NCBI GenBank assembly: GCA_963769885.1
Contig: CAVYNH010000004.1
Span: forward strand, 75,904-139,903
Source of the DNA: Methanobacteriota archaeon
GTDB taxonomy: Archaea; Thermoplasmatota; E2; DHVEG-1
Reading direction: 5' to 3'
DNA length: 64,000 nucleotides
In this document: in pieces, positions 2,736 to 57,740 of the stretch
Position numbering within the stretch: position 1 is the first letter of the stretch
Layout: each line of letters opens with the position of its first letter
The notes under the pieces: model-generated
The model's input: only the letters and a program-made list of their open reading frames with translations
The model's database searches: none
Told to the model about the DNA's origin: nothing
Position numbers and translations under genes: made by a program

Positions 2736-3099
2736 TTTCGCATCCCATCCTGCACCACACTTTTTCGGGATGGATGCTGTCCGACAGTATTAAAACAGTG
2801 AGCGGATTACCCTTAGGAAAGATGCCCATCCTCGCTTTCTTGTGATGGCAAAAACGATATGGGCTTTATCCCGATAAACTTAATTTACGGGCAACACTTT
2901 GAACCAGGAAAAACAATAATAATCGAATGATTGTAAAAAACTAAGATTTTTGACCCCCAACTTTATTAAAATATGTAAGAGATATTATGTAAGAGATATG
3001 TATTAATATAAAGAATTGATAGATATTTGTAGCTCTAAGAAATACATAACTCGTGTCTGAGCAAGTTTTTTAACTCATCAGCCATGTTTTATCCTTACA

Positions 3100-4200
3100 A
3101 CCGCCAAGTTGCAAGCACCGAAACGATCCGCTTATGATTTTCTAATCCCCGATTGGACCGGAAGGCGCCGATGATCTTGCGCATAACCACATGCTCGTGA
3201 ATCGTTTGCTTGGCGACGTTGTCCGTCGGCTGCATCTCTGGATACAGCAAGCACGTATGCTAGCTGCTCGGTCCGTTCATTAGGTATTGCGCCTTCACTC
3301 GCGCCTCAGGATTATCGATGTAGTTATCAACCAGGGATTTAAGTTCCCGGTCCCAGTGCATTTTTTGTTTGATGCGCTGGGACATCGGCGGGTCCTTGCC
3401 GACGAAGACTTTCAACTTCTTGAATCGTCGATGCAACTTTCGGGAGAACCTCTGTTCGTGGTCTGAGAGGGTCGCCAGCATCGACCTCTCGGTGGAGGTG
3501 TGCCCAGCAGCGCTTTACCGTGGGCAGCGCCTGGTAGCTGCGGTGGCCGTCGTTGACCAAGGTGCCGTTGACACCTCGGCGCCGAAGATTTCCTTAGCCC
3601 TTTCTGCTACGGGATGCTCTGATCATTATTAGGACACCCGTACTAATCGGTTAAAAAATCCGCAGCTAGTGGTTCCTCCTCGTGATTGGCACCCCGGTCC
3701 CGCCGGTATGCCGCCAGCGAGTGGTCCTAATCCTCAGTTGGAGACATTCGTATTCGGGAGCGCAGGTGCCCCCAACCCGTAGGGAGATGTTGTGGACGTC
3801 TTTGGGACTAATCTGCAGCCCATATTGTTGGTGGAGGGCGTCCTGGATGCGTCGCAGGACGCCCCGTTGGTGGAACTTCATGAGGGTAATGGTGGTCATG
3901 AGGTGGACGCAGAAGCTGCCTTGGTGTGGACAGTCCAGATGCGCAGCAGTGATTTCGATGCCGCACCCGAGGCAGTGACAGCAGTGAAGGTCGTCACAGG
4001 CAACCTTGACGTGTGGTGGTGGGATGTCTTCGATGGTGCGGAATTCGATGCTGGTCGCGGCTTCTACCTCGGAGCCACATCGGGAGCAGCAAGGGTAATG
4101 ACGATGATTTCATTGGGGTCTGGTATGTCCCGGGTGGCACTGCGGTGGCCCGATAGGGCACCATGTCGCCCTGGCGTGCTGCCCTGCCAGCGTAGATTTT
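3100..4200 (-). pseudogene. GC-rich degenerate segment with transposase-like ORF fragments (family uncertain)
   Basis: Several short overlapping minus-strand ORFs with Cys/His-rich stretches (CDDLHCCHCLGCG) and no continuous frame; composition differs from the AT-rich neighbours. Family assignment not supported. Confidence 0.2.
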
Positions 4201-7027: not shown

Positions 7028-8977
7028 TCATAATGCTTTTTTCAAAGTAATTATTTTATTAACAATATTCTCAATTGATTTACACGATTTTCCGTCATTC
7101 TTAGCTTTCTTGATTAACTCCTCAAAAACTGTTGGGTTCTTATCAACTTGTTCAGAACGAAGGCAAAATTGTTTACAACACCCTGCTTTGAAAGTGGTGA
7201 CAAAATCTAACCCCAGTTCACTTGACATCGTTTGTGGTAAATTCTGCTTGAAACATGCATATTTATCTGATATATTGTCGGGCCAATCTACTTCCGGTTC
7301 GCCACATAACTTTAACAATTTTCGATTTTCAATAGGCGTTGATTGAGGTTCTTCAGGAGGATGAAAATCACCATCCCATAATGGATATACTAATATTCCC
7401 ATTTTTTGGAATATTATTAGTGGTTTGTCCATGTTTCCTTTGCCCATACAGGGTATTATGGGGATCCCTTCTGTCTCCATATTTATACCGATAGCTGCAG
7501 CCGTTCCCATGAGTGCAGCCTTATCGCTTTCCCCCTCGACTAAAATTACTAAATTAGAAAAAAAGCCTTCGTTCATAATCGGCGTCATAATTATTCTCAA
7601 ACGGGCTTCTAAACTGTGCGGATTTAAGGTACCTTTTGGTTTTCCATCCGCTCGGTCAATAATTTCAGCTACCTCAAGTAAATTTGTCGATGTGATTTTT
7701 GCCTGTTTTGGTTTTGCTGGATCTATTGTCTTCTTCCGTATTGACCTTATTTGGTCAAGTTTTTTAATATCAACAAATAAAGGAGAGTGTGTAGTGTAAA
7801 TAATCTGTATTTTATCGATAATTTCTCCAATTCTACCTGCTGCCAATTCTTGCAAAATATTTGCAAAATGACGCTGTCTGATTGGATGCTGATATAATTC
7901 TGGTTCTTCGATACCTATTATGAGGTTTGGCAATTTTGCCTTAACAGTAGGAGGAACCCCTGGTTCGCCTTCTTTTTTTTCTTCTGTCGATTGTGTTATT
8001 GCTAACTGTTGAAATAATGTTAAAATAAAAGCTCGTTGCAATCCATGGCCCACTCGATCTATTGATGATGGATAGTCATCTTCTATTAGTTTGATGTCTG
8101 CGATTGGTGATGGAATTTCTATTGTTTTTTGGAAATTCCAGTTTAATTTGATACCCGCATCAGGAATAAACTGTTTTAGGGCAGTATTCAAATTTTCTTC
8201 AAGAACGCCCAGCTCAGTGAAATCTTTAGCTTGTAAAATTTTTTCATATTCACTTTGTGTATTTTCCCCCAATCTGACCAGTTTTGTGTTTCCTGCTAGT
8301 GTTTTACGAACTACTAAATCCATAAGTTCAGTTAAGGGTGTGCCCTTTTTTTCCTCTGCATCCTCTGCAGCATCACGAACGGCAGGAATTAAAATGAATT
8401 TTGTAAATTTTTCAAGATGACTGTTTCCAACAGCATTGAATCCAAAAAACTGACCATCATCTCTACGTCTTGTGCAAGAAGCTTTATTCGCCTCCTCCCA
8501 TTGCTGAAGGAAACTTTCGCATTCTTCCTTGTTAGTATAATCTGGTAACCCAAAAGTTTCCTTCAATGAAGAGTATTCTTTTCTAAGTTGCGATGTGCCA
8601 TGAGCAGATCTAAAAGAATCAAAAGCTGGATTCCGAAGACTTTCGCCATAATATTTTTGTATTGACTTTGGAGTCTGAAACGTAATTATTTTTTGAACAG
8701 TAAGTGTATTGTCGAAAATATATTTATTAAAAAGGGTTTTTTCGTCTTGGTTCAAGTCTTTGTATCTGACGGATATGATTATTTCATTTGAAGTCTCATG
8801 ATTATAAAAATCTTCTTCAGTTATAGTATAATTTATTTCGTAGAAGATTCTTAGAGCTGTTAAAAAGGTTGATTTCCCTGATCCGTTTGGACCTATCAGG
8901 GCAATGAGTTGTTGACAATTAAGTGTTTCATCAACGATACAGCGAAAATTTTGTACCCGTAAACTTTCGATGATCAC
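7028..8977 (-). CDS. OLD-family ATP-dependent endonuclease (N-terminal ABC-type ATPase + C-terminal Toprim)
   Basis: Walker A LIALIGPNGSGKSTFL near N-terminus; C-terminal Toprim-like motifs LVILVEGESDKAAL and PLWDGD; 649 aa; GTG start in track frame. Confidence 0.8.
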   Translation of the reverse strand: MIIESLRVQNFRCIVDETLNCQQLIALIGPNGSGKSTFLTALRIFYEINYTITEEDFYNHETSNEIIISVRYKDLNQDEKTLFNKYIFDNTLTVQKIITFQTPKSIQKYYGESLRNPAFDSFRSAHGTSQLRKEYSSLKETFGLPDYTNKEECESFLQQWEEANKASCTRRRDDGQFFGFNAVGNSHLEKFTKFILIPAVRDAAEDAEEKKGTPLTELMDLVVRKTLAGNTKLVRLGENTQSEYEKILQAKDFTELGVLEENLNTALKQFIPDAGIKLNWNFQKTIEIPSPIADIKLIEDDYPSSIDRVGHGLQRAFILTLFQQLAITQSTEEKKEGEPGVPPTVKAKLPNLIIGIEEPELYQHPIRQRHFANILQELAAGRIGEIIDKIQIIYTTHSPLFVDIKKLDQIRSIRKKTIDPAKPKQAKITSTNLLEVAEIIDRADGKPKGTLNPHSLEARLRIIMTPIMNEGFFSNLVILVEGESDKAALMGTAAAIGINMETEGIPIIPCMGKGNMDKPLIIFQKMGILVYPLWDGDFHPPEEPQSTPIENRKLLKLCGEPEVDWPDNISDKYACFKQNLPQTMSSELGLDFVTTFKAGCCKQFCLRSEQVDKNPTVFEELIKKAKNDGKSCKSIENIVNKIITLKKAL

Positions 8978-9232
8978 AATAATTCCTTTCTAGGATATCC
9001 AGTTGATATATGCTTTTTCCTTTTCATTCTTCTCGAAAAAGTTATACCCTCGCTAACAACTCTTTCAGACTAGAAATGTTTTAGGGCCCTATAAATTAAT
9101 CTAATTTTGATTTTATCAAGACGGTTAACAATGCAACTAATAAAAAGATTTTAATAGAACCTTTAGTTAAGAATCATGCATAGAGGCGCAGGATGACAAA
9201 AGATGACATACTACTGAAATGGGGATATTTTC
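8978..9232. promoter_or_regulatory. Divergent intergenic region between the OLD-family gene and the SbcD-like operon; candidate bidirectional promoter
   Basis: 255-bp AT-rich spacer with TATA-like ccctataaattaat near 9087-9100 and GGGGA RBS before ATG 9233. No experimental support. Confidence 0.25.
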
Positions 9233-10366
9233 ATGCCGATTAAGTTTCTACATACGGCTGACTGGCAAATGGGTATGAAAGCTCTTCAAGCTGGCGAGAA
9301 AGCAAAGGAGGTTCGTGTTAAGCGTTTTGAGACAGCGAAGCGAGTTATTGAATTGGCAAAAAATGAATCTGTTGATTTTGTCATTCTTGCTGGTGATTTA
9401 TTTGAGCATCATGATATTGATGAATTAGTTGTCCGGAAAACAGTGGATATTCTGAACAACTTCAATCCCATTCCAGTCTTTATACTGCCAGGTAATCATG
9501 ATCCTCTTGTTTCCGGCGGCATCTGGGATCGGCATAGCTGGCAGCAAGTTAAAGGTCATATTACACTACTTCGAGAGGCTAAAGAAACCTTGGTCTCGGA
9601 TCAGGTCGTCATTTATCCTTCGCCATTATCCCAGAAACAAAGTTCGACCGATCCGACAGAATGGATTCCAACCAGAACTCCTGGCGATAATCGTATTAGG
9701 ATTGGGATCGCGCACGGTTCTTTAAACATATTACCTGAGCGTACCAACTTTCCTATTGCAGCTGACCGTGCGGATAAATGTTCATTGGATTGTTTGGCTC
9801 TTGGAGATTGGCACAGTTTCCTACAACATGGTCGGACTGTCTATCCTGGTACTATGGAGCAGACAAGCTTCACCGAAAAAGATTCGGGAAACGTTGCAAT
9901 AGTAGAGATTAAGAAAGTGGGTAATGAGCCGATTGTTTTTAAAAAACATATTGGACAATTCCTTTGGAGCGAGCATCAACCAACTATTCAGGACAAAACC
10001 GATGTTGATGGTTTTCGTGCCTTACTCTTGAAACAAGCATCGCTTTCCAACCAACTACTTAGGATAGCACCGATAATCACTCCAGAAGCCTCTTCAGACG
10101 CTATATCCGAACTAAAAATACTTCGAGATGAGCTGTTTGAAGAATCATTCTTTCTCAACTGGCCAGATGAAATGTTTAATACCACCCTTGATACCTCAGC
10201 GCCCTTACCGGACGGACTACTATCTAATGTGGATATTGACTTCGCAAACATTCTCAATCACCGGATTCCAGATGGACCTGGCCAGGAGTTCGCATCAGCT
10301 GACTTAACAGTGGTCCTTGAGGCACGAACTCTTCTCAGACGAATTGCAAAAGAGGGGGCAAAATGA
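9233..10366 (+). CDS. SbcD/Mre11-like calcineurin-type metallophosphoesterase (nuclease subunit-like)
   Basis: Motifs FLHTADWQMG (motif I with Gln where SbcD has His), ILAGDLFEH, LPGNHD, IAHGSL, GDWH; stop overlaps start of downstream gene (ATGA at 10363-10366). Confidence 0.75.
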   Translation: MPIKFLHTADWQMGMKALQAGEKAKEVRVKRFETAKRVIELAKNESVDFVILAGDLFEHHDIDELVVRKTVDILNNFNPIPVFILPGNHDPLVSGGIWDRHSWQQVKGHITLLREAKETLVSDQVVIYPSPLSQKQSSTDPTEWIPTRTPGDNRIRIGIAHGSLNILPERTNFPIAADRADKCSLDCLALGDWHSFLQHGRTVYPGTMEQTSFTEKDSGNVAIVEIKKVGNEPIVFKKHIGQFLWSEHQPTIQDKTDVDGFRALLLKQASLSNQLLRIAPIITPEASSDAISELKILRDELFEESFFLNWPDEMFNTTLDTSAPLPDGLLSNVDIDFANILNHRIPDGPGQEFASADLTVVLEARTLLRRIAKEGAK

Positions 10367-26963: not shown

Positions 26964-29900
26964 CTACAGGCCGCTGACGCTGAACACAAACGCGGAGACG
27001 AGATGATGCTGGTCGCTGTCGATGAGGACGTTCCCCTGCTGGTCGCAGAATGCCGCATAGACCCGATATTGCCCATTCCCATGTCTGAGGTCATCGGTTT
27101 TCACAAGGCCATGGAAGATGCTGTCAAGGGCCAACAGCCCGCCGCTTTGAATGAGCCGCGGGGTTTGCTCGTCAACCGCCTTCGTATCCAGCATCCATTG
27201 TCCAGTCCGCGGGTCCTGGAACTCCACCTGGATCAGGAGGTAGCCCCGGATGTCCGTGATCCCAGTGTTCTTGATCTTCGACTGGTTCCGGCACTGCACG
27301 ACCAACCGAGGCTGGCATCCAATCCCCTGGAACTCATAGGAGGAGATAGCGACGTATTCATTCCCGGTCGGCGTGGTCCCGCTGATGTCCCTGCTGCTAC
27401 GTAGGCAGAGTTTTGTCACTCCGATCCGATTGATCCAGCCGAGCCCCTGGCTGTTGAGGGAGAGATCGTTGAACCCGTTGACGAAGTTATTAGTGTTGAA
27501 CTGCCCGCCGTTCCCTGAATACAGGCTCTTGTCGTAATCCGTGACGATGAGAGGATTATGGGGATAGGTCGGCTGTCCGTTCTGGACCGTGATCAGGAAG
27601 TCTGTCGTCGAGTAGTCACCCATTTTATAGAGGCCTAGTGTGGCGGCGTCGATGATGGCGTTCGACGGGATTCGTGTCGTGTCGAAGAAGAGGAATCCTC
27701 GGTAAAGGGAGTATGGTCCGAACGGTGGATTGAATTTTTGCCCGATGAGGATGGAGGCGCCAGTGTTGTCGACGGTGCCTCGGGTGCTTGTCCACGCGGT
27801 GTTGTAATTCGTGTTCGAGTTGTAGATATAGCCATCCGTTGCTTGGGAGTAGAGCGTGATGCTGGGATCGACCTCGGGGAATGCGTCGGTCAGTTCAATG
27901 ACCTCTCCTTTGGTGTACGAGGTTTTGAGCGTACCGACGCTAAGGGTCGCATGGGCGGCGATGTCGAAGTAGAATCCGGTCGCGGTTTGCTCGTTGCCGA
28001 GGTTATCGACGGCCCTGACGCTCACGGGATATCGCCCGGTGAGCCAGGTGTCGTTGAAGTAGCACTCGTATCTGTTCGGGACGCCAGTGACGAGGGTCAT
28101 TGGGATCTGTGTTTCTTTCATTTGTTGGGATTGGTTCGGTAACTGGATTGCTGCTGTTGCTGCCTTCACGCCGCTGATGTTATCCATGATGGTGGCTTGG
28201 ATGTGGATTTGTGAGCCGAAGCCACTCAGTGAGGGCGTGACCAAGACTGACGTGATGTACGGTCCGTCGGCGTCGAACGTGGCATGGTGGGTCTCGGTGG
28301 AGCTTTGATTGCCCTGGATGTCGATGGCGTGGGCGGAGAAGGTGTAGGTGCCGGAGAGTCCGGTGAAGGTGTGGGCGAGCTTGTGGACGCTGTTGTTGTA
28401 GGAGGCTTGGATTTCTTCCCAGCTTAATGCCCTGGCGTAGAGCTGCGGCTCGTCGAGGAGGCCGCGGAAATGGTGGTACTCCGCCGTGTTCTCTTCTGAG
28501 AGGCAGGTCTCCTGGTTGTTTGTGATGTCGCGGACGGTGCCGGTGGTGCTCTGGTCGAATTCGCCGTCGACGTAGAGTCGAAGCTCGGTGCCCTGCCGGA
28601 CGTAGGCGATGTGATGCCATGCCTCGGCGGTGATGGGGATGGTTCCGGTGAGGCTGGTGGTTTGGCCTGGGAGTGATCCTTGCGAGGTGAAGATGCGTGC
28701 GTATGAATTGGAGATGCCGCAGTAGTATCCCTGGCCGGTGGCTTCAGGCTGGTTGCTCAGGATGATGCGGATGCTTGGGGGCTCGAAGGAGACGGGGACG
28801 TTCACCCACGTCATGAAGGTGAAGTCGCCTGTTCCTAAGTTCAGGCTAGGGTCTTTTCCGCAGTGGACCGCATCGTCGATGCCGTCAAAGTCTAATGCCT
28901 TTCCGAATTTCCCGGTGACAATATCGGATGGCCCAAGGCCTCCCCAGAAGACCCCGTTGTTGTGATACGTCGAGTCGTCAATCACACTGGTATCGTTGTA
29001 GTCGTCCATGGGCCAGTAGCCGCGGAGGGTTCTGTTCCAGTCGATGAACGCCGCTGTCTGGAGGCCGTCCTCGACGGTGGCGTTCACTTGTGCCCAGCTC
29101 TGGTTGATCATCGCGTTATCTGGCGGTGTGGGCGGGACAAAGTAGATGATGGGGGTGGGCGTGACCGTGAAGTTGAACTCGTTTGAGTAGTTGGTGTTGT
29201 TCGCGTTGTCGACGGCCCATACCCGGCCTCTGTATTCGCCGCTCTGCTGGGTGTCGGAGAAGGTGAGGAAGTAGCTGTCGTTGATGATGTGGGTCATGGG
29301 GTATTCAGCCGTCGAGTTGTCGGGGGCGGTGATGTTGACCCAGGCGGTGTTGATGCCGCTGTCGTTGTCGGCGATCACTGCCGCTATTGAGGCGTTCATG
29401 CCGACGCCGACGACTTCCGGCGTGACGTCGAGGTACGTGATCTTCGGCGGGGTCATCTCGAAGGTGATGTTGAGCTGTTTTGTTATGGAGTGGAGTTGGT
29501 GTGTATCATCGGTCACGGTCAGCGTGACGTTGTATTGGCCTACGTTTTCATAGAAGTGGGTCACGTTTCGACCATTGGTGATGTTTCCATCCCCGAAATT
29601 CCACGTCCAATCGGTGATATGGAGGCCGTCGCAGGCGGCCGAGGTGTCATTGAAGACGATGGGGTAATCCGGGTTAACGTAGGGGTAGTTCGGGACGCTG
29701 AGGTTGTAGCTAACGTTGAGCGGCATGACCGAGACGTTGACTGAAATCTCCTCTATGTAGTTATTCGCATCCGAGACCCTGAGACGAACGACGTTGTCGT
29801 CTCCGGCTCTTTCGAAGTGATGGACCAGGGTCTGTTCATGGTGGGGGATCAGCTCGTTGTTTATGGTCCACTCATAGTCGACGGGGGCAATCGCGCCGGC

Positions 29901-32828
29901 TACCTGCGCGGCATAGATGGAGTCGATACCGACGACGGACGGCATCGAGGTCGCTCCGAGCACGCTCTGTGCGGATGCCGCTGCGGAACAGGACATCAAC
30001 AGATCCAACGAGAACTTGACCGTGACCGTGAACGGATCGGAGAATACACTCCAGTTTCCGTATCGGCTGACGCCAGGCATGGCTCCATCGAAGAGATACC
30101 CTTTGAAGTCCTCGCGGGCTCTCACCACGATCGTGCGCGATCCCGCCCAATGGTAGACGTGGGATGCGTCGCATGGGTGGTCTTCAACGATCGGCCCGAC
30201 GCGATCATTGTCATTTGTCCACTCATAGTTCCAGTACCATTGATATTGTAATGGGTCTCCTTCGTCATCATCGGTCCCGGTTGAACTGAATGTGGCTTTC
30301 TCTCCGGCATGGACGGTGGTCGGGCCGGTAATGTCCCCTGGCTTGTTGGGGTCGACATTGCTGCGCTTATCTAAATGAACGAAAGGAACCTGCGTCGCGA
30401 TATCATTCGGGCGACTGGTTTCATCCCTGATAATATTGTCAATTCGTCCGGAGGAATTGTACAGCTCGAGGTGGAGTTTATACCAGCCGGCGTTCACCCC
30501 ATTTACCGGCGGCAGCGTCATCGTGATCGTCTTCTGAACGCCGTCGGAGGTCGCTTCGAAATCAAAGTATTTCCACGTGACGTCCTGGCAATCGTCATTT
30601 AGGAGGCTGGCTTTGATTCTCACCTTGTCTGAGGGGAGGGTGGATGTCACGGTGAGCGTCGCCTGAATAGAGTCATCCTTTCCATCCTGATCGATGTCAA
30701 CAACGTTAAAAGTCACCGGTCCGTCGAACTCGCAGTCGGGGTTCAGCATGTAATATTTGAAGATATCCCAGATCAATTCCGTAGAGGCGACGACGTCGCT
30801 GTGATCGATGTATTGCATGCTGTCGCCGTCGGTATAGTTGTCGCCGGCTCGATGCCATTGATCCCAGGAGTATCCGATATATTTTGGTTTGCCAAAAATG
30901 TTCTTGCCGACGACGCTGTCACCCTTGAACAGACAGGTCGTATTTGCTTGGGGAAATGTAGCATTGACCGTCCCCTGTTCTGATCCAAAACCAGATCCAG
31001 CTCTGACCCAGCAATCGTAATTCGAATAGCCGCTCTCTTTTCGAATGGTATCCAATGTTTTTTCTCTCTCTTTTTCTGTTGTGAAAATCGACACTCCGCA
31101 GTTCTTCTGGTTAAAGCCGAGTTGGTCGAGGATCAGCCAATGTACTAGGGTATTACCCAGACTACCTGAATGATTGTCGACGTAGTGTCGAGCGCCTTGG
31201 AATCCGTGTTCCTCCGCCGTTGTGAAAAGGAACGTGAGGTTGTATTTTGGTTTGATGGAGGGATGGTCTTTGACGTATTTTGCTATGGTGAGGACGATTG
31301 CGCACCCGACTCCGGAGTCGCCGGGTGTCTGTCCCCACATGCCGTCGTACCTATTTGAGAAGATCCCAACAGCGTTACCGGGGCTTCCGCCGGGAATCGA
31401 GATGTTGGCATAGACGTCGTCCCCTATCGTCCCTGGATGTCCCGGCGTCTCTTCGAGGTAATCCTGTCTTGCATCGCCGGTAAGAGTCGTGGTGTCATGA
31501 TTCTCGCTTAAGAAATCGCCAGCCGTGTAATTTAACGTCAGTATTGGCAGCATATAGGTAGAATTTTTTTCGGTATTTTGATCGACAACAAAATGGTAGT
31601 CATGCGAATCATATAAAATAACAGCTGTGCAATTGAGTGCCGGACAATTGATGAAATTAAAGAATTGTGTGACGAGTGTGGCAGCAAATAAGACATGAGC
31701 AAAACTTACTTTGGCATGGATGGCTTCGTCCTGGTGGGTGGGGAAATTCACGAGGGTTTCACCTAATGCGATCGTCTTGTATAATGGGTGACTATACCAT
31801 GTCACATTCAACAGTTCACTGTGATCCGGGATTCTACAAAGGAGAACAAATGGCTGGTACGCGGGATAAATACCAAGGAAATCATAACGGAAGGTCAGAT
31901 CCGTCATGAAGTCTCCAAAGTTATCTACTAAGACGACAGGGTAGCTTGACAGGCGTTCTTTCACCTCGTTCCCAGATTCGTTATCAATCCAAAGAACGGG
32001 GTAACAACAATTTGAGGTATCAGTAATGTATTCGATTCCTTGATCATTGTAGTCAACGATGATGACCGCTGTTGCGTCAGTGATGGTATCCAGCTTTGCC
32101 TGCGCTCCTGGCAGATCGTCAATCAGGAAGACGCGGTCAATCATATAGTCTGGTGGGCAAGGATCGTCGGGTCCTATGTAATGAACAATTCCGAAGATCA
32201 CTTTGAAAATATAGTCAGTCAATTTCCCGAATTCACGAACGGTGTAGGAGCCTCTCCCTCCAAATAATTTTCCGAGCTCAAAGGGGACGATCTTGGTATT
32301 ATCGAAGACATAATGCTTTGTCCAATTTTCGCTTCGCGAAGCGGCATTGTCTTTACTTGCTTCTATTGTGTTTTTATAGGGGATATATCCGATTTCCTTC
32401 CGTGAAATAGGATTCATGAATGGGTACGTCGGTGCTCCAGGATCTGTGTTGACGCTCAAGTGAAAATCGGTGTCGTTGATGATGCATGAATAGTTTCTAT
32501 GCGCTTCATTGATGTAGGCAAGTCGCTCTGTTTTTACATTCCCCTGGCCGAACATGGTTTCAAGTCGAGGCACCAGTATTTCATTTGCAGTGTATATTCC
32601 TCCTTTTGAGTCAAAGTTCCTTCCCTTGGGGATATCAGTTTGGTTGTATGCATCGTATATCACATTGGTCAGATTCCCTAACACTTCCCAGAGATAATCA
32701 TAGTCGAGGCCTTCTGGCACAGCCACGGCTTTTGAGACGCTGTTCTTTGGGTCGAATTTGGTTACCATTAGACTGGTTGCCACGAGCATCAAACAGACTA
32801 CTAGTCCGAAAAATTTCCTACTTACCAT
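26964..32828 (-). CDS. Giant secreted multidomain surface protein (M28-peptidase-like, PKD-like and LamG-like domains; many N-glycosylation sequons)
   Basis: 1954 aa; GGAGG RBS; signal peptide MVSRKFFGLVVCLMLVATSLMV; FLFTTAEEHGFQGARHYV (M28-like EE motif); WNFGDGNITNGRNVTHFY and YQWYWNYEW (PKD-like); LRGYWPMDDYNDTSVIDDSTYHNNG...LRLYVDGEF (LamG-like). Confidence 0.8.
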   Translation of the reverse strand: MVSRKFFGLVVCLMLVATSLMVTKFDPKNSVSKAVAVPEGLDYDYLWEVLGNLTNVIYDAYNQTDIPKGRNFDSKGGIYTANEILVPRLETMFGQGNVKTERLAYINEAHRNYSCIINDTDFHLSVNTDPGAPTYPFMNPISRKEIGYIPYKNTIEASKDNAASRSENWTKHYVFDNTKIVPFELGKLFGGRGSYTVREFGKLTDYIFKVIFGIVHYIGPDDPCPPDYMIDRVFLIDDLPGAQAKLDTITDATAVIIVDYNDQGIEYITDTSNCCYPVLWIDNESGNEVKERLSSYPVVLVDNFGDFMTDLTFRYDFLGIYPAYQPFVLLCRIPDHSELLNVTWYSHPLYKTIALGETLVNFPTHQDEAIHAKVSFAHVLFAATLVTQFFNFINCPALNCTAVILYDSHDYHFVVDQNTEKNSTYMLPILTLNYTAGDFLSENHDTTTLTGDARQDYLEETPGHPGTIGDDVYANISIPGGSPGNAVGIFSNRYDGMWGQTPGDSGVGCAIVLTIAKYVKDHPSIKPKYNLTFLFTTAEEHGFQGARHYVDNHSGSLGNTLVHWLILDQLGFNQKNCGVSIFTTEKEREKTLDTIRKESGYSNYDCWVRAGSGFGSEQGTVNATFPQANTTCLFKGDSVVGKNIFGKPKYIGYSWDQWHRAGDNYTDGDSMQYIDHSDVVASTELIWDIFKYYMLNPDCEFDGPVTFNVVDIDQDGKDDSIQATLTVTSTLPSDKVRIKASLLNDDCQDVTWKYFDFEATSDGVQKTITMTLPPVNGVNAGWYKLHLELYNSSGRIDNIIRDETSRPNDIATQVPFVHLDKRSNVDPNKPGDITGPTTVHAGEKATFSSTGTDDDEGDPLQYQWYWNYEWTNDNDRVGPIVEDHPCDASHVYHWAGSRTIVVRAREDFKGYLFDGAMPGVSRYGNWSVFSDPFTVTVKFSLDLLMSCSAAASAQSVLGATSMPSVVGIDSIYAAQVAGAIAPVDYEWTINNELIPHHEQTLVHHFERAGDDNVVRLRVSDANNYIEEISVNVSVMPLNVSYNLSVPNYPYVNPDYPIVFNDTSAACDGLHITDWTWNFGDGNITNGRNVTHFYENVGQYNVTLTVTDDTHQLHSITKQLNITFEMTPPKITYLDVTPEVVGVGMNASIAAVIADNDSGINTAWVNITAPDNSTAEYPMTHIINDSYFLTFSDTQQSGEYRGRVWAVDNANNTNYSNEFNFTVTPTPIIYFVPPTPPDNAMINQSWAQVNATVEDGLQTAAFIDWNRTLRGYWPMDDYNDTSVIDDSTYHNNGVFWGGLGPSDIVTGKFGKALDFDGIDDAVHCGKDPSLNLGTGDFTFMTWVNVPVSFEPPSIRIILSNQPEATGQGYYCGISNSYARIFTSQGSLPGQTTSLTGTIPITAEAWHHIAYVRQGTELRLYVDGEFDQSTTGTVRDITNNQETCLSEENTAEYHHFRGLLDEPQLYARALSWEEIQASYNNSVHKLAHTFTGLSGTYTFSAHAIDIQGNQSSTETHHATFDADGPYITSVLVTPSLSGFGSQIHIQATIMDNISGVKAATAAIQLPNQSQQMKETQIPMTLVTGVPNRYECYFNDTWLTGRYPVSVRAVDNLGNEQTATGFYFDIAAHATLSVGTLKTSYTKGEVIELTDAFPEVDPSITLYSQATDGYIYNSNTNYNTAWTSTRGTVDNTGASILIGQKFNPPFGPYSLYRGFLFFDTTRIPSNAIIDAATLGLYKMGDYSTTDFLITVQNGQPTYPHNPLIVTDYDKSLYSGNGGQFNTNNFVNGFNDLSLNSQGLGWINRIGVTKLCLRSSRDISGTTPTGNEYVAISSYEFQGIGCQPRLVVQCRNQSKIKNTGITDIRGYLLIQVEFQDPRTGQWMLDTKAVDEQTPRLIQSGGLLALDSIFHGLVKTDDLRHGNGQYRVYAAFCDQQGNVLIDSDQHHLVSAFVFSVSGL

Positions 32829-42864: not shown

Positions 42865-44757
42865 TCACTGTCTATGGAAGTGTGGGAAACAGTTCAGGAG
42901 GGTGACTTGGAGTTCGTCGCTGTCGTACAGGCTCAGAGGCCGGCCGTACTCAGAGGTGTAGCCGTAGACGCTGAGGGTTGCCTCCGTCAGGAACATCCTG
43001 AGGTTCAGTCTCCAGGTGAAGGGCCGGCTGGCGTCGGTGTGGTACAAGGTGCCGTCGAGGTAGAACTCGACCTTGTCGATCGCGGCGACGGCGTTGACCT
43101 CGATGTCGAGGGGGCCGAGGACGAAGACGCCTTTGTGGGGGCGCTGGAGCGGCCGGTTCCATAGATATATCGTGTTGTTCTGTGGTCTGGTGATCTGTAG
43201 GGACTTGACGACCGAAAGCGGTGTTTTTTCTGAGCGGACGTAGCCGGGATTTTCCGCGTAGACCTGGTAGTCACCGGGTGTGGTGCATTGGATGATCGCG
43301 GTCCCGGACTCATCAGTCGCGTAGCGGGTGGTCCCGACCCAGATCGTGATGTTCCCGACAGGGGCCATGGTCTCGTTGTAGGTATGCACAAGGAGTTCCT
43401 CTGAGACGTTGATGGTGTGCTTGCCAAGGGTGATGCGCAGGGCGTGGGCGTCCCATTGTTCCAGGTAGCCGAAGAGGACCTGCCGGGTGGTGTTGTTGAG
43501 GAGGTAGTGTCCGGCGTCGATCATGGGCAGCGTGTAGTCGACCCAGTAGTGCCACCAGTCGGAGTCGTTGGCGATGGTCTTGACGTAGAAGGCGCCCCAG
43601 TCGGGATAGTAGATGATGTCGTAGGTGATGTGTGCGGCGTCCAGGGCGGTGACCAGGGCGCTGAGGACCGTGGGGTCTGGGAAGGTGTAGTGTTGCATCT
43701 GCCCACTGCTTTGGTTGTAGGCCTGGATGGTGGTGTTGCTGCAGTGGATGGTGCCGTTGAAGAGGGTTGTGGTTTTTCCTTCGACGCGCACGGTTCCTGT
43801 CCATTCGGCTCCGGTGGAGGGGTCCTGGTGATGGGTCGGCTGCCAGATCCTCACGGGGTAAGGATGTGCGAGGAGCGCGCAGAGGACGTAGGAGGTCATC
43901 CATTCGGGGTTGAGGTTCTGGGTGGTGCTCCAGTTGAAGCCGCCGTCGGTGCGCTGGAGGCTTGTGAGGTAGTCGATGGGTGTGTGGTTGTTCTTCTGCC
44001 AGGATGGGCTGGTGGGGTCTTGGTCGGCTTTGATAAGGGCGCAGGTCGTCCAGGCGGTGGAGGCGGCATTGGTGGTCCCCCAGGATTGGAAACCTCCGTT
44101 ATTAGCTTGAGTGGTTTTGAGGTAGGCGAGGGCGGTGGCGATGGACGTGTCTTGCGGGTCTTCTCCTGCGGCGGTGAGTGCCATGATGGCGGCCGCGGTG
44201 GTGTCGGCGTCGCCCCAGCCGCCGTTATTTTGTTGGTAGGTGAGGATGTAGGCTTTCTCCTGCTGGATGAGGGGTGCCTGTGGTGCGGTGCCGCAGGCGA
44301 CCAGGGCGAGGATGCCGAAGAGGTCGTCGTAGAGGAGGGTGGGGTTTCCAATCTGTGTGCCGTCGTAGAAGCTTTCCAGTTTGGTGAGGAGGTTTGTTCC
44401 TGCGACTGTGGTGGGGTCTTGGCCGCAGGCGACCAAGGCGAGGGTCTGTCGCTGCCAGTCTGTAGCCGTGTTGTTGTCGAGGAGGGTGAGGCTGTCGACG
44501 AGGTAGGCGGTGAGGCGGGGGTCTGTTTTGTTGGCGGCGGCGTAGGCCATGGCTGCCCATGCTGAGGTGGCGGGGCCAGCGATGCTTCCGTCCGGTGCCT
44601 GTATTGTTTGGAGGTATTGGAGGGCGTTGGTGATGACAGGGTCGTCGGGTGAGTAGGGGTAGGTCGCTTGTGGGTCTGCGGTGACGAGAGATAATGGTTG
44701 GGTGATGAGGGGGAGGGCTAGTGTGAGGAGAAGGAGGGTGGCTGTTGTTTTTTTCAT
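42865..44757 (-). CDS. Secreted protein with prenyltransferase/terpenoid-cyclase-like alpha/alpha-toroid repeats and a C-terminal beta-rich domain
   Basis: Start set at internal ATG 44757 (MKKTTATLLLLTLALPLITQPLSLV signal peptide); repeats GGWGDADTTAAAIMALTAAGEDP, NNGGFQSWG, TDGGFNWS; track ORF extends to 45210 but that extension overlaps the divergent ArsR gene and is Ser/Thr/Arg-rich. Confidence 0.6.
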   Translation of the reverse strand: MKKTTATLLLLTLALPLITQPLSLVTADPQATYPYSPDDPVITNALQYLQTIQAPDGSIAGPATSAWAAMAYAAANKTDPRLTAYLVDSLTLLDNNTATDWQRQTLALVACGQDPTTVAGTNLLTKLESFYDGTQIGNPTLLYDDLFGILALVACGTAPQAPLIQQEKAYILTYQQNNGGWGDADTTAAAIMALTAAGEDPQDTSIATALAYLKTTQANNGGFQSWGTTNAASTAWTTCALIKADQDPTSPSWQKNNHTPIDYLTSLQRTDGGFNWSTTQNLNPEWMTSYVLCALLAHPYPVRIWQPTHHQDPSTGAEWTGTVRVEGKTTTLFNGTIHCSNTTIQAYNQSSGQMQHYTFPDPTVLSALVTALDAAHITYDIIYYPDWGAFYVKTIANDSDWWHYWVDYTLPMIDAGHYLLNNTTRQVLFGYLEQWDAHALRITLGKHTINVSEELLVHTYNETMAPVGNITIWVGTTRYATDESGTAIIQCTTPGDYQVYAENPGYVRSEKTPLSVVKSLQITRPQNNTIYLWNRPLQRPHKGVFVLGPLDIEVNAVAAIDKVEFYLDGTLYHTDASRPFTWRLNLRMFLTEATLSVYGYTSEYGRPLSLYDSDELQVTLLNCFPHFHRQ

Positions 44758-44812
44758 AAGTTTCTTGCCTCTTGGGGTGTGTAGGGAGTCGGTAGGTTTA
44801 AATGTAGCAAAA

Positions 44813-45358
44813 ATGATGATGATTGTTAGTACTATGGGTAACGATGTGTTTAAGGCCTTGAGTAGTCCGACGCGGGTGAGGATTCTCAAGGAGCTTGCGG
44901 GCCGGGAGCTGCATGTGTCCGAGGTTGCGCGAAGGCTTAAGTTGTCGGTGCCTGTGGTCGCTCGGCACGTGCGGGTGCTGGAGGGTGCTGGGTTGGTTCG
45001 GAAGCGGGTTGTGGGGAATCTATATTTGTTGTCGTCGGTGGGGGTGAACGTGGAGGAGGCGTTGGATCCGCTGGGGGAGGAGGCGCGGGTGTCGATTGGG
45101 GAGCGTGAGAGCCTGTTTGATGCGCTGCGGCAGGTGCCTGGGGTGGAGATTACGCGGGTGGGGGATGTGCAGTATATCACGTCGATTAACGGGGAGCGGG
45201 GGTACTTCATCTATGAGGTGGATGGGAAGGCGCCGGGGGTGCCGATCGATCAGTACCGGCCGGGGCGGACGGTGCGGCTGCAGGTGAAGCGGCTGGTGCC
45301 GGTTCGGAAGAAGACGGTCGAGGTACAGGTGCAGCGGGGGGAGAACCAGGAAAAATAA
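44813..45358 (+). CDS. ArsR/SmtB-family HTH transcriptional regulator, divergent from the toroid/DUF4430 operon
   Basis: VFKALSSPTRVRILKELAGRELHVSEVARRLKLSVPVVARHVRVLEGAGLV; start chosen at internal ATG so as not to overlap the divergent gene. Confidence 0.6.
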   Translation: MMMIVSTMGNDVFKALSSPTRVRILKELAGRELHVSEVARRLKLSVPVVARHVRVLEGAGLVRKRVVGNLYLLSSVGVNVEEALDPLGEEARVSIGERESLFDALRQVPGVEITRVGDVQYITSINGERGYFIYEVDGKAPGVPIDQYRPGRTVRLQVKRLVPVRKKTVEVQVQRGENQEK

Positions 45359-46916: not shown

Positions 46917-47888
46917 ATGCAAAAAAAAGAACAGGGAAATAATTCTATTGCTTATTACTATGATGTTGCATTATCGTTTGCTGGGGAGGATAGAAATTTT
47001 GTTGAAAAAGTGGCTCAGGAATTAATAAAAATGGATATTAAAGTTTTTTATGATAAATATGAAGAAGTAATTTTATGGGGAAAAAATCTGTATACACATC
47101 TAAGAGACATCTATCAAACAAAAGCAAGATATACAGTAATGTTTATTTCGAAGAATTATGCCCAGAAAGTCTGGACAAATCATGAACGAGAAAGCGCACA
47201 AGCTCGGGCTTTTATTGAAAATAAGGAGTATATCTTACCTGTTCGTTTTGATAATACAAAAATTCCAGGGGAGTTACCTACCATTGGTTATATCAGTTTA
47301 AAGGGTAAAACACCTAGAATGTTAGCTGAATTAATTAAAGAAAAAATAGGGCCGATACCTCGGATTAACTATTTTCCAGATAATCCCGATCGATTATTCG
47401 AAGAATTAAAAGTAAGAGAACCAAAAAAACAGGAATTAATATATAATTTAGCATATACATTTCATGAGAGCTTTAAGTTAATGACTCCTACTGAGAGAGA
47501 TATTTTGTTTAAAGCATACTTAGAGACTTGCCCGGAAGGGCCCCCAGAGAATATTCATTTAAACCTTCAATATTTTTTAAGAATATTGTCCATGGAAAAA
47601 CAAGAACTTATTGCGATTTTCTCTAGGCTGGACTGTTTGGGTTTCCGAACAAAAATTAATAAGGTAAATGAAAAGAAAGACCGTCACAAAATATGTGGGG
47701 ATAGTGAGATAATAACAATTACATATGAAATAAATAAACCTGCCTTTTCAGGGAATGCATCCTTTATAATGATTTCAATTTTCGATATTATGACAGACTT
47801 GATATGTAAGGATTGTTTACGGATAACTTTGGAGAATGCGGATTTTTCAATTTTAAGCACGGCAGTTGGATATAAAGAAAAGAAATAG
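46917..47888 (+). CDS. TIR-domain protein with C-terminal domain of unknown function
   Basis: N-terminal YDVALSFAGEDRNFVEKVAQELIKMDIKVFYD...ARYTVMFISKNYAQKVWTNHERESAQ matches the bacterial TIR pattern (DV(F/A)(I/L)SxxxED...S.W...E); ~170-aa C-terminal region without recognisable motif. Confidence 0.65.
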   Translation: MQKKEQGNNSIAYYYDVALSFAGEDRNFVEKVAQELIKMDIKVFYDKYEEVILWGKNLYTHLRDIYQTKARYTVMFISKNYAQKVWTNHERESAQARAFIENKEYILPVRFDNTKIPGELPTIGYISLKGKTPRMLAELIKEKIGPIPRINYFPDNPDRLFEELKVREPKKQELIYNLAYTFHESFKLMTPTERDILFKAYLETCPEGPPENIHLNLQYFLRILSMEKQELIAIFSRLDCLGFRTKINKVNEKKDRHKICGDSEIITITYEINKPAFSGNASFIMISIFDIMTDLICKDCLRITLENADFSILSTAVGYKEKK

Positions 47889-48018
47889 TTTCTCTGACCC
47901 CCTCCAGGAATTTATAAGGAGTAGAACGATTATCTTTCTCCGAGAAAAATAAGGTCAAAATTGACCCCCAGATGCTGCGAGCATCCAGGGGTCTGAGACC
48001 ATAATAGGATGTGCTATT

Positions 48019-49014
48019 ATGATCCCAAGCGGGAACAATACCCATAGTGGTAATAAGATTTTGGTGCAGGCCAGTTTAAATCAGATAGCGACTCAAAAAC
48101 AGTTGAACACATCACCTAAGGCAATTACGACTTCGGTCATACAGACTTCTTCTTCGAAACAAGAAAATGACAATGACAATCTCTTGGACAAGTTCAACCG
48201 TTACATGCGTGAGAACAACTACAGCAAGAGCACCATCTACATGTATACAAAGGTTGTCAGCCAGATGCTTGCCATGAAAGATCCGCTCTCCATGACGGAG
48301 GATGATCTCAGCGACGTTCGGCTCTACCTTGTTGAACGCTATGCTCAGAATGGGAACCGGGCGAGGTTCGCTGCCATCAACGCCTTCTGCAAGCATATCC
48401 TTAAACGAAAAGACCTGCACCTAAGGATTCCCGGACCCGTCATCAAGAACAAGGACGTGTTCACCAATGAACAGATCGATGCTATCCTTGCTGTTGCGAA
48501 GACAAAAAACAAGCTTGCCTATGCCATACTTCAGACCTTGTACCACTGCGGACTACGCAAGATGGAGCTGGTTAACCTGAACCTCTCTGATCTCAACTTC
48601 GAAACTATGGAACTTCGATTGGACAACACCAAGACCGGAAACGCCATCGTGTCAATGACCACGGCTGTTGCTTTGGCGCTGCAGGATTACATCGAGAATG
48701 AAAGATCTAAGAAAGAGGGTGAACAAGCCGTTTTCCTCAACAAGAAAGGAGTTCGCATTGGAGAATGGGATGTTAGAGGGTACCTCAAGAAATGTGGAAA
48801 AGAAGCCGGGATAACATCCCGGATGTATCCACATATGTTACGCGCATCATGTATCACACATTTATTAAATAAAGGCGTGAATCCTCTCACGGTGCAGCTT
48901 CATGCCAGACACAGAAATTTCATGACAACCATGAGATATAACAGGCCAACTCAACAACAGATGAAGGCTGATATAGAAAGAATATTCTCTATAACTAATC
49001 AAGAAAAGATTTAA
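48019..49014 (+). CDS. Tyrosine recombinase (XerC/XerD-like integrase), intact
   Basis: C-terminal catalytic region HMLRASCITHLLNKGVNPLTVQLHARHRNFMTTMRYNRP (R..H..R..Y pattern); N-terminal SAM-like region NRYMRENNYSKSTIYMYTKVV. Confidence 0.75.
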   Translation: MIPSGNNTHSGNKILVQASLNQIATQKQLNTSPKAITTSVIQTSSSKQENDNDNLLDKFNRYMRENNYSKSTIYMYTKVVSQMLAMKDPLSMTEDDLSDVRLYLVERYAQNGNRARFAAINAFCKHILKRKDLHLRIPGPVIKNKDVFTNEQIDAILAVAKTKNKLAYAILQTLYHCGLRKMELVNLNLSDLNFETMELRLDNTKTGNAIVSMTTAVALALQDYIENERSKKEGEQAVFLNKKGVRIGEWDVRGYLKKCGKEAGITSRMYPHMLRASCITHLLNKGVNPLTVQLHARHRNFMTTMRYNRPTQQQMKADIERIFSITNQEKI

Positions 49015-56050: not shown

Positions 56051-56341
56051 ACATTGATCTCCTTAGGAAAAAATAGCGGGTCTTTTTCCGTTGAAAATCG
56101 GAAATGCTATTAACCACCTCGGTTTCGTCACCTATGAGCATTGATGACAGGCAGCCAATCCATACCTGAGGGAGTCCGAACACCGGGGACGCTCACAGGT
56201 AATTTTTTATCCCAGGGATCGTATATAATCCCTACCAGATCGCCGTATGACCTGGTAGGAGGCGTATCAAAAAAATGGACCCACACTACACCACAGTTAG
56301 GCGAACATTTTGCAAACAATCAACCCCTACACGGGGAGGAA

Positions 56342-57493
56342 ATGGTGAATCGACCTTATGTAATTCAACCGTACCTTAATGTAGACGAAAGACCACGAAT
56401 CGATGATAGAAAGCTGATCATCTCGTTGCATGTCGACCGATCTAAATATACCACCCATGAAGAAATATACCATGAGATCACAAAATGGTGGGTCAACATC
56501 AAGAATCGATCCGCAACTACCGTAAAAGACCGCATATGCCATGCACGATCTATGCAACACCACCCGATCTACCCGGTAGACTGGCTGCAATTTGACCCAG
56601 TGCAAATCCTAAACCAATTACTCTACCGGCAGATCCACGAGTATCCAGAACTCGCTAAAAAGACCGGCAGACCAACCTACGGAGTGACACAGTTAAACAA
56701 TCTCTGGAAAGTCGTACGAATGTTCTCAGAGGCGTACGGCGTCGATATTTCGCATTGGGGCTGGACTCCGCCAACTCCGCCAGAGCCACAAGTCAAAATC
56801 GTTCCCAGGCCAGAAACCGTCAACAAACTCATGCACCATTGGTACACGAACGATCGATTCGAGAACGCCCTCATTCGAACGCTGTTAACCGTTGGTTTTC
56901 ACACTGGAGTACGACCAGAGGAACTTGTCATCCTGAAGGTTAAAGATGTGCGCTTTGATGAAGGATATCTCCTCATCCACGAACAAAAAAAGAAATACCG
57001 AGAGCGACAAGTATGGATCGATGAATCGGTTCTCTCAAGCCGCCAACAAAACAGCCTACGAAACTGGGTAATCCTTTGGAGACCGCGAAAAGCCAACGAG
57101 AAATCTGGAGATTTTCTGTTCATCCAGAAGAATGGCACCCCGTTTCCATCTGCAGAAGCCCTTCGCATGTACCTCATGCCTTTCTGCAAGCCAGTATGGC
57201 CTGATTTCAAGCCTAGAATCATGAGGGACTGGAGCGCCATCGCACGGTTGATACGAACAAAAATCGAGACAAAGAAATGGGATACCAGGATCGTGAAAAA
57301 CGATCTCGGGCATAAACATGAGAAAACGACGGAAAGCTATATTCGATTCGCGGAAAACTACTATCGCAGGGACCCATACGATTGGCTACGGGCCGTCCTG
57401 AAATTTCACCCAGACAGCAAACGAATGCTGTCTCTGAGACAGGAATACGGGCCGAGCCAAGAAGTTACCGTAATAGTTCCGCACGCAATGTAG
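56342..57493 (+). CDS. Tyrosine recombinase/integrase adjacent to the 3' end of tRNA-Arg
   Basis: Start set at ATG 56342 preceded by GGGGAGGAA; catalytic region VGFHTGVRPEEL...LGHKHEKTTESYIRF (H...Y); ends 70 nt from the tRNA 3' end. Confidence 0.7.
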   Translation: MVNRPYVIQPYLNVDERPRIDDRKLIISLHVDRSKYTTHEEIYHEITKWWVNIKNRSATTVKDRICHARSMQHHPIYPVDWLQFDPVQILNQLLYRQIHEYPELAKKTGRPTYGVTQLNNLWKVVRMFSEAYGVDISHWGWTPPTPPEPQVKIVPRPETVNKLMHHWYTNDRFENALIRTLLTVGFHTGVRPEELVILKVKDVRFDEGYLLIHEQKKKYRERQVWIDESVLSSRQQNSLRNWVILWRPRKANEKSGDFLFIQKNGTPFPSAEALRMYLMPFCKPVWPDFKPRIMRDWSAIARLIRTKIETKKWDTRIVKNDLGHKHEKTTESYIRFAENYYRRDPYDWLRAVLKFHPDSKRMLSLRQEYGPSQEVTVIVPHAM

Positions 57494-57563
57494 GTACATG
57501 TGGAATCTCAACAACGGGTAAAAACAGGGCTCCTGAGGTACGAGTCCCTCCTGTTGAATTTTA

Positions 57564-57637
57564 CGGACCTGTCGGGATTTGAACCCGAGTCAGAGGCTCC
57601 GGAGGCCTCTGTGATATCCAAGCTACACTACAGGTCC
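57564..57637 (-). tRNA. tRNA-Arg (anticodon CCG)
   Basis: Own fold: acceptor GGACCTG/CAGGTCC, anticodon stem GAGGC/GCCTC with loop CTCCGGA, T-arm TCGGG-TTCAAAT-CCCGA, discriminator G; 74 nt. Confidence 0.75.
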
Positions 57638-57740
57638 ACGAGTGTTTCTTTGCTATCAATCCAACCTTAATTAGATTTTCCACAAGCAACATAAACCACC
57701 ACGAGCCTCGACCACATATAATAAAACCGGAGAACCACGT

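Follow-up and report, generated by a model that had tools for sequence, protein, structure and literature searches.

The DNA analysed here is a stretch of 64,000 nt from contig CAVYNH010000004.1 of a Methanobacteriota archaeon (hereafter the window, on which all positions are given unless a locus is named). Its block at 7028–13053 encodes an OLD-family nuclease, a metallophosphoesterase (MPE) with the Mre11/SbcD fold and a Rad50/SbcC-like ABC ATPase without a zinc hook. The OLD gene, of the class 1 type, lies on the reverse strand at 7028–8977 (649 aa, GTG start). It is separated by an AT-rich divergent intergenic spacer of 255 bp (8978–9232; GC 0.31) from a forward-strand operon, in which the MPE gene (9233–10366, 377 aa) precedes the gene of the SMC-like ATPase (10363–13053, 896 aa), the stop codon of the former overlapping the start codon of the latter as ATGA (10363–10366). 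In the spacer, ATATAT precedes the OLD start by approximately 30 nt and GGGGA precedes the ATG of the MPE gene by 8 nt, and the putative promoters of both OLD and the operon presumably lie there. The direct neighbours of OLD are an 86-aa open reading frame (ORF) and the MPE operon. An IS110-family transposase gene (13302–14279, forward strand), which starts 249 bp past the ATPase stop codon, forms the right edge of the block and lies outside the module. The GC content is 0.358 in OLD, 0.41–0.44 in the operon and 0.395 in the whole block. The three ORFs, the divergent spacer and the ATGA overlap had been described in an original prediction made from the sequence alone, and all of them lie where it had placed them. 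Its assignment of the proteins to the OLD family, to SbcD-like phosphoesterases and to Rad50/SbcC-like ATPases was also found to be correct by Pfam, PADLOC and structure matches.

The MPE was matched by the Pfam model Metallophos (2.5e-13). Its AlphaFold2 (AF2) model, with a predicted local distance difference test score (pLDDT) of 88.6, has the Mre11 fold including the capping domain, and all of the 50 best PDB matches of this model in Foldseek were Mre11 or SbcD (E down to 5e-15). In profile comparisons with solved structures, the pair of operon proteins matched Mre11 and Rad50 of T. maritima and P. furiosus. Motifs II (GDLFE), III (GNHD) and IV (AHG) are present in the window protein, and the family as a whole shows no variation in GD, GNHD, AHG and the final His of motif V. 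In motif I (HTADWQ, nt 9251–9274) the usual metal-binding His is replaced by Gln in 88 of the 95 members, and in motif V (LGDWH, nt 9800–9817) the first His is replaced by Asp in 90 of them, giving GDWH instead of GHxH. A few members have His at one of these sites, which suggests that the two changes are linked. Judged by these alignments, the metal site is altered yet conserved family-wide, and such a family-wide change of two metal ligands of the nuclease is undescribed in PADLOC v2 or the searchable literature.

The ATPase was matched by the Pfam models SMC_N (residues 3–878), AAA_23 and AAA_29, with a borderline match to AAA_27 at the N-terminus (23.2 bits against a cut-off of 22). Its best solved relatives by profile are Rad50 heads, and the top Foldseek match of its model is the Rad50 entry 7zr1. 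The heads contain Walker A (GRNEAGKST, nt 10453–10479), a Q-loop (LWYLQ), the signature motif (LSYGAKEQ, nt 12799–12822) and Walker B with the D-loop (VVIDDHLVNAD, nt 12883–12915). ABC ATPases usually carry Asp-Glu at Walker B. Here the residues are Asp-Asp, and an invariant Thr-Cys-Asn occupies the position of the expected H-loop His (nt 12883–12996, residues 841–878); these two features hint at slow or switch-like turnover of ATP. Between the heads, the model has a helix of approximately 190 residues that folds back at residues 429–474 (nt 11647–11784, forward strand; pLDDT of approximately 65–76). This apex of the coiled coil, in which V431, F433, P446, V458, T462 and F464 are invariant in the family, is predicted to form a five-strand β insertion at the place where Rad50 and SbcC have their CxxC zinc hook. 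No CxxC was found in the window ATPase or in 28 aligned relatives (0 of the 29 members checked), which bears out the absence of the hook that had been noted earlier.

Loci of the family (numbered with the prefix L) were fetched from species-representative genomes (80) and from metagenomes (78), and several more were obtained by exact look-up. Their gene maps were made by ORF calling and cross-checked with phmmer and hidden Markov model (HMM) maps; many of the contigs are short. In approximately 150 bacterial and archaeal loci, essentially wherever the contig reaches, the MPE gene immediately precedes that of the ATPase in the same orientation, the two mostly overlapping by 4 bp, and nothing else is conserved across the neighbourhoods of the family. 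The MPE–ATPase pair is a conserved, self-contained and widespread unit. A profile of the ATPase matched 4,701 representatives of 50%-identity clusters at E ≤ 1e-30, and nearly all of the top 150 matches were full-length proteins of approximately 900 aa. The nearest homologues are 55–61% identical and include those of Hydrogenedentota and Eisenbacteria, most of the close matches being metagenome contigs. The hosts of the family further include Thermoplasmata, Methanoculleus, Legionella, Marinobacter and Paraburkholderia, and distant members reside on conjugative plasmids of sphingomonads and Burkholderia. No match to the pair was obtained in 50,697 phage records or in IMG/VR.

Since Mre11 and Rad50 are the top structural matches, and since the archaeal Mre11 and Rad50 models of NCBIfam show weak similarity to the N-termini of the proteins, the pair might be taken for the ordinary single-copy mre11/rad50 of the lineage with an overlooked hook. 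However, the scores are far below the equivalog cut-offs, reaching at most 43 bits for the Mre11 models (cut-offs of 500–600) and at most 63 bits for the Rad50 models (cut-offs of 700–1087). In addition to the missing hook, no herA or nurA gene was found beside the pair among the scanned ORFs of the window (the larger ORFs, not every ORF), in agreement with the original prediction. Furthermore, the pair lies in low-GC island DNA with insertion sequence (IS) and integrase genes against a GC content of 0.57 in the core, and its closest relatives include bacterial ones. Because it scores far below the equivalog cut-offs, has neither the hook nor adjoining herA or nurA, and has bacterial proteins as its nearest named relatives, the pair is by sequence not canonical archaeal Mre11/Rad50, and an overlooked ordinary mre11/rad50 is highly improbable and close to refuted.

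The closest characterised analogue is SbcEF (YhaN/YhaO) of B. subtilis, likewise hook-less and matched here on the published description of its architecture and gene order. SbcE is an SMC-like protein closest to SbcC; it lacks CxxC, carries deviant Walker and signature motifs and has a central domain that is both unique and conserved and includes a conserved proline, and the gene of an SbcD-like phosphoesterase lies directly upstream of its own (PMC2811018). One fragment of the present family is labelled YhaN in IMG. SbcE/SbcF being an earlier example, the lack of a hook in an SbcCD-like pair is no novelty.

The OLD protein contains the three motifs that the original prediction had quoted, namely GPNGSGKST (residues 29–37), VEGESD (480–485) and WDGD (534–537). 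It was matched by the Pfam models AAA_15 (1.6e-41) and OLD-like_TOPRIM (3.8e-15), and Old ranks first among the PADLOC models (1.9e-53), before every GajA and AriA model, the best GajA match being far weaker (1.6e-27). The sole solved structure that it matched is that of the class 1 OLD of Thermus scotoductus (TsOLD; 6P74), and VEGESD and DGD align with the Toprim glutamate and DxD of that enzyme, so the Toprim residues are upheld on alignment. No UvrD/PcrA-like helicase, reverse transcriptase or separate AriB gene was found beside OLD, and no UvrD match was obtained anywhere in the window. The family of this OLD, whose proteins have approximately 650 aa, is very large: of the scored candidates, 3,535 were matched at E ≤ 1e-10. 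None of the three relatives nearest to the window OLD (65%, 65% and 60% identity) has an MPE–ATPase pair in its vicinity; their neighbours are HNH, RmuC or SIR2_2-like genes. No synteny was found between the flanks of the window OLD and those of its nearest relatives, the sole link being a SIR2-like similarity at E = 1e-5. That link involves a 377-aa protein beyond the IS110 gene (14618–16239, reverse strand, together with an adjacent 160-aa ORF), which has weak SIR2 similarity (PADLOC 9e-5, no Pfam match) and weakly resembles, at this E value, a SIR2_2-like gene in L089/L090, two genes downstream of the 60%-identical OLD relative.

Class 1 OLDs have been described as single genes located away from other defence genes (PMC10568477); the window OLD departs from this description, as it adjoins the pair and has a SIR2-like gene 6 kb away. 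P2 Old and TsOLD are ATP-regulated nickases and 5'–3' exonucleases, and P2 Old is lethal in recBC cells, which ties it genetically to the loss of RecBCD, a nuclease acting on DNA ends (2023 review, PMC10568477). The class 1 OLD of V. cholerae is reported to be a DNA nickase and to confer defence by itself (PMC12392090).

OLD and the pair had been proposed to constitute one defence module. An HMM scan of all loci for a full OLD (ATPase and Toprim, borne out by Pfam) no farther than approximately 1.5 kb from the pair detected one in 10 of the 23 loci of the window's clade (loci with ATPases at least 47% identical) versus 1 of approximately 120 loci elsewhere (Fisher p = 1.6e-8 when loci are counted, and p = 1e-4 when only five independent events are counted). 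OLD is thus significantly enriched beside the pairs of this clade, and to that extent the proposal stands. The trio as a single conserved module, however, does not: most loci, including about half of those in the window's clade, have the pair without OLD, the three closest OLD relatives have no pair, and the divergent arrangement without a KTSC gene was seen only in the organism of the window.

The OLDs linked to the pair are polyphyletic, comprising six lineages that are 21–43% identical, and all of them match the class 1 Old model of PADLOC best; the window OLD groups with its own unlinked relatives. The arrangements also differ, with OLD being divergent and upstream in the window, co-directional and upstream in L101 and downstream in L098. 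In six further loci, OLD lies downstream after a 70-aa KTSC-domain gene. These loci contain tight co-directional MPE–SMC–KTSC–OLD cassettes in unrelated islands (L002, 8877–14939; L172, 7871–14066; L091, 602–6837; L092, 2072–8300; L163; L164). On the ATPase tree, the window forms the branch neighbouring the KTSC–OLD clade, while L098 and L101 fall in another clade. L091, L092 and L172 have identical KTSC proteins followed by OLDs of two clades that are 37–38% identical, and therefore OLD has been swapped. The KTSC protein has no PADLOC match. No KTSC gene lies near the operon in the window, where a weak tblastn match at 1439–1600 (E = 0.016) is all that was detected. In L093 (11807–15547), KTSC is followed by two proteins of 359 and 683 aa that have no Pfam or PADLOC match and are not OLD; these may be an alternative partner. 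A sole OLD-like gene near a distant member of the pair was seen in a metagenome-assembled genome (MAG) of Roseateles (L031, 5933–7999, reverse strand), 1.8 kb downstream and on the opposite strand. The recurrent and exchangeable pairing of the pair with class 1 OLD, often through KTSC, is undescribed in PADLOC v2 and the searchable literature. Neither a named SbcCD-like or Mre11/Rad50-like defence system nor a combination of KTSC with OLD was found in that literature, and PADLOC v2 has no model for the MPE or for the ATPase, so that the remark in the original prediction that OLD with an SbcCD-like pair is not a named system holds for both sources.

The enrichment of OLD beside the clade, the independent recruitment of at least five OLD lineages and the recurrence of the tight KTSC cassette in unrelated islands would all be expected if OLD and the hook-less Mre11/Rad50 pair formed an integrated three-component system acting only together, with OLD as the effector and the pair as the sensor, or with OLD guarding the pair. 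In the guard form, OLD would fire when a viral end-binding inhibitor blocks the pair, by analogy with the killing of RecBCD-less cells by P2 Old, and the genetic tie of P2 Old to RecBCD loss fits such a scheme, as does the putative promoter region of 255 bp that the window genes share. However, most pairs lack OLD even within the clade, the nearest relatives of the window OLD stand alone, the KTSC gene of the cassette is not in the window, UvrD or AddAB fills the same slot elsewhere and the GC content differs between OLD and the operon. Moreover, a class 1 OLD is reported to defend alone in V. cholerae (PMC12392090). An obligate three-component system is thus considered unlikely.

The slot beside the pair is occupied by other enzymes in several loci. 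In L004/L005 and L095/L096, a GajB-like UvrD helicase (1.9e-51) follows the ATPase gene in the place of OLD. In L008 (8815–18047), from a Ca. Eisenbacteria MAG, a complete Gabija system follows the pair, with OLD and GajB (1.5e-168); the MPE and SMC genes of this locus are split into several frames and are either pseudogenes or the result of long-read assembly errors. AddB/AddA-like helicase–nucleases flank the pair in two lineages, being downstream and co-directional in one (L116) and divergent and upstream in the other (L107/L169); the AddAB-linked loci are L116 (2585–11978), L115, L118, L120, L107 (1–12709) and L169–L171. A conserved protein of 180 aa without a Pfam or PADLOC match follows the ATPase in 11 loci of the anaerobic-digester or methanogen type that belong to the clade of 35–40% identity (L123, L127, L128, L130–L133, L135 at 2879–3418, L137, L146 and L152).

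The neighbours of the pair in the window's clade are overwhelmingly defence genes. They include McrBC, SIR2_2 with HerA, GmrSD, TIR, caspase-like peptidases and HEPN, as well as type IIG restriction–modification, an ABC-3C component, SLFN/AlbA, a MORC-like ATPase and SAD/SRA-HNH. The genes of the HmaA (HTH-SNF2-NOV_C) helicase and the HmaB (DUF1156) methylase enclose the pair, along with OLD or UvrD, in four loci (L002, 3737–22195; L004, 5174–19525; L095, 5174–19777; L096). Hma systems are DUF499-centred BREX-related systems, and their HmaA–HmaB slot has been reported to host Septu and OLD–ABC modules. No SbcCD/Mre11/Rad50-type pair is mentioned in the BREX/BR survey or in those of its supplements that were searched, and no Hma genes were found among the scanned ORFs of the window. 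The residence of the clade in defence islands and inside Hma/BREX-related operons is undescribed in PADLOC v2 and the searchable literature.

These neighbours could also be incidental. The pair might be an SbcEF-type accessory paralogue for repair or recombination with no immune role, standing next to defence genes only because mobile DNA was inserted into one and the same variable region. Such a paralogue would account for the housekeeping synteny in Paraburkholderia described below, for the AddAB genes that adjoin the pair or share its operon in several lineages, and for the annotations 'DNA repair exonuclease SbcCD' and 'YhaN' given by the data sources. However, the flanking genes of the clade are almost all defence genes, and the pair resides even inside Hma/BREX-related operons, a known home of auxiliary modules. 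Furthermore, its spread is sporadic over bacterial and archaeal phyla with members 55–61% identical, it is carried on conjugative plasmids and the enrichment of OLD is specific to the clade. A pure repair paralogue is accordingly regarded as improbable.

The reading that we favour, with a confidence slightly better than even, is that the block consists of two adjacent modules in a large acquired archaeal island, which are joined in a facultative partnership in which OLD is exchangeable and not an integral subunit. The first module would be a stand-alone class-1-type OLD, acting as an ATP-regulated Toprim nickase and 5'–3' exonuclease by analogy with P2 Old, TsOLD and the V. cholerae enzyme. 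The second would be an obligate two-gene operon whose products form a hook-less complex of the Mre11/Rad50 type, as in SbcCD and Mre11–Rad50. In such a complex, the ATPase heads would clamp DNA in the ATP state and, after turnover of ATP, position the nuclease at free, hairpin-capped or protein-blocked DNA ends, while the β apex would replace the zinc hook as the contact between the arms. Because the pair lives in defence islands in this clade, its likely substrates there would be viral or plasmid DNA with ends, the circular chromosome having none. A second enzyme would degrade or unwind the DNA from the break. This enzyme would be OLD in the window's clade, and OLD is taken to be facultative and exchangeable because UvrD or AddAB would fill the same role in the sister clades.

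Several points weigh against this reading. The defence role of the pair is inferred from context only, as guilt by association. The enrichment of OLD counts loci rather than independent events, with many of the contigs being short, and the KTSC–OLD loci form a single clade on the ATPase tree. The difference in GC content between OLD and the operon, together with their divergent transcription, is compatible with separate acquisition. With regard to activity, two canonical His ligands are missing from the MPE, and the ATPase has Asp for the Walker B Glu and no H-loop His, so that both proteins are only putatively competent in catalysis. For the ATPase, AF2 gave a model of moderate confidence (pLDDT of 71) with poorly resolved heads. 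In addition, nine or more Paraburkholderia species have a distant member (approximately 25–30% identity, 874 aa) in conserved housekeeping synteny with genes for cobalamin biosynthesis, sulfite reductase, PanE, DUF445 and an AI-2E transporter (L057, L062, L064–L070, L072 and L078), where it resembles a stable chromosomal gene, and some members of the family share an operon with AddAB. This linkage mirrors the addBA–sbcDC cluster of B. subtilis. The family may basically be a repair machine. From the AddAB linkage and the Paraburkholderia synteny, the family overall therefore looks like a machine for processing DNA ends, one clade of which has moved into defence islands, and defence is not a trait of the family at large.

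A stronger form of the two-module reading, which we hold only tentatively and consider rather doubtful, is that the hook-less Mre11/Rad50 clade has become a system dedicated to countering viruses and plasmids, in which the second enzyme is exchangeable, namely class 1 OLD (often via KTSC), a GajB-like helicase or AddAB. Where OLD is the partner, the pair would open or mark foreign DNA ends for it; alternatively, OLD would stand guard over the pair and be set off once the pair is blocked by a viral inhibitor that mimics DNA ends (Gam-like). If this dedicated role were true, the pair would be the first physical partner of class 1 OLD enzymes, and MPE–SMC–KTSC–OLD would be a new named multi-gene defence system across bacteria and archaea. 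Broken DNA is universally sensed by machines of the Mre11/Rad50 type, and Lamassu already provides known immune factors that are Rad50-like but have no nuclease as a partner. A complete hook-less Mre11/Rad50 complex in defence islands would, if true, show a repair machine converted to immunity, and its insertion inside BREX-related operons strengthens that case. The partners and triggers of class 1 OLDs were raised as an open question in the 2023 review (PMC10568477), and the recurrent, clade-specific link of OLD to a DNA-end-processing complex is a testable hypothesis that echoes the tie between P2 Old and RecBCD. Furthermore, the family comprises thousands of 50%-identity clusters with generic annotation, and an assigned function would re-label many genes.

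The original prediction had described the block as AT-rich acquired DNA among GC-rich core genes, and this was confirmed. At the right end of the window, archaeal core genes such as those for aIF2-gamma (60851–62092; GC 0.57) and NAD synthase have a GC content of 0.57 against 0.395 in the block, and IS elements and integrase genes are present. The low-GC region far exceeds the block, extending over roughly 1–57 kb, and is compositionally mosaic because two large GC-rich (0.53–0.60) genes lie within it: one at 26964–32828 (reverse strand) encodes a 1954-aa protein with PKD, LamG and M28 domains and the other at 42865–45210 (reverse strand) a 781-aa prenyltransferase-like protein. The island also contains an IS200-like gene at 20.5–21.4 kb and a gene for a TIR_2-domain protein followed by a tyrosine integrase gene (46917–49014). 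A second tyrosine integrase gene abuts a tRNA-Arg(CCG) (56141–57638), after which the GC content rises to 0.57 and the core genes start. A 121-nt Rfam tRNA match in the window was interpreted as an intron-bearing tRNA, which together with aIF2-gamma marks the DNA as archaeal. A very large integrated island probably has its edge at the junction of the integrase and tRNA-Arg(CCG). At the right edge of the block, the IS110 gene occupies the slot in which relatives have KTSC–OLD, UvrD or other genes, and it may have displaced the original downstream gene of the operon; L001, an 11.9-kb Logan contig obtained independently for this organism, ends inside IS110.

Comparison with known systems places OLD and the pair differently. 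As in the class 1 OLDs of phage P2, T. scotoductus and V. cholerae, the ABC ATPase and Toprim domains of the window OLD are fused in a protein of approximately 650 aa, and no UvrD gene lies downstream. The difference is that this OLD and those of nine related loci directly flank an Mre11/Rad50-like operon in a defence island. Gabija (GajA OLD with GajB UvrD helicase) shares with the block the pairing of an OLD-family nuclease with a second DNA-handling ATPase; membership was rejected, as the window has no GajB or UvrD and the GajA models match OLD less well than Old does. PARIS needs a separate AriA ATPase and AriB Toprim protein, whereas the window has a single fused protein of 649 aa, of which the AriA model covers only residues 1–402, and membership was rejected here too. 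Septu was rejected on missing partners and weak, partial PADLOC matches. MADS (methylation-associated defence), considered since relatives of the pair adjoin a DUF1156 methylase, was likewise rejected: OLD matches mad3 only at the P-loop level, and the context proved to be Hma/BREX-related.

The pair shares with SbcCD and Mre11–Rad50 an Mre11-fold nuclease with a capping domain, ABC heads of the Rad50 type between whose halves a long antiparallel coiled coil is inserted, and the order in which the nuclease gene precedes the ATPase gene. In contrast, it has no zinc hook, no H-loop His and DD instead of DE at Walker B, its nuclease family has His replaced by Gln in motif I and by Asp in motif V (approximately 93% of the 95 members), and HerA and NurA are absent from its scanned neighbours. 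It differs from SbcE/SbcF in that no yhaM-like gene follows the pair and in that the window's clade is mobile and occurs in defence islands and in archaea, whereas SbcEF is a conserved chromosomal factor for repair and competence in Gram-positive bacteria. Lamassu (LmuA/B/C) and Wadjet (JetABCD) likewise use SMC/Rad50-like ATPases to defend against foreign DNA. Matches to LmuB and JetC were weak, partial and at the level of the P-loop or coiled coil (1e-7 to 1e-8), with no kleisin, LmuA or JetD-like partner and no match to LmuC, JetA or JetB either, and membership of either system was rejected; the partner of the window ATPase is an Mre11-type nuclease, which is absent from both. The auxiliary modules of Hma/BREX-related systems, finally, offer the same setting, as relatives of the pair with OLD or UvrD occupy the HmaA–HmaB slot.

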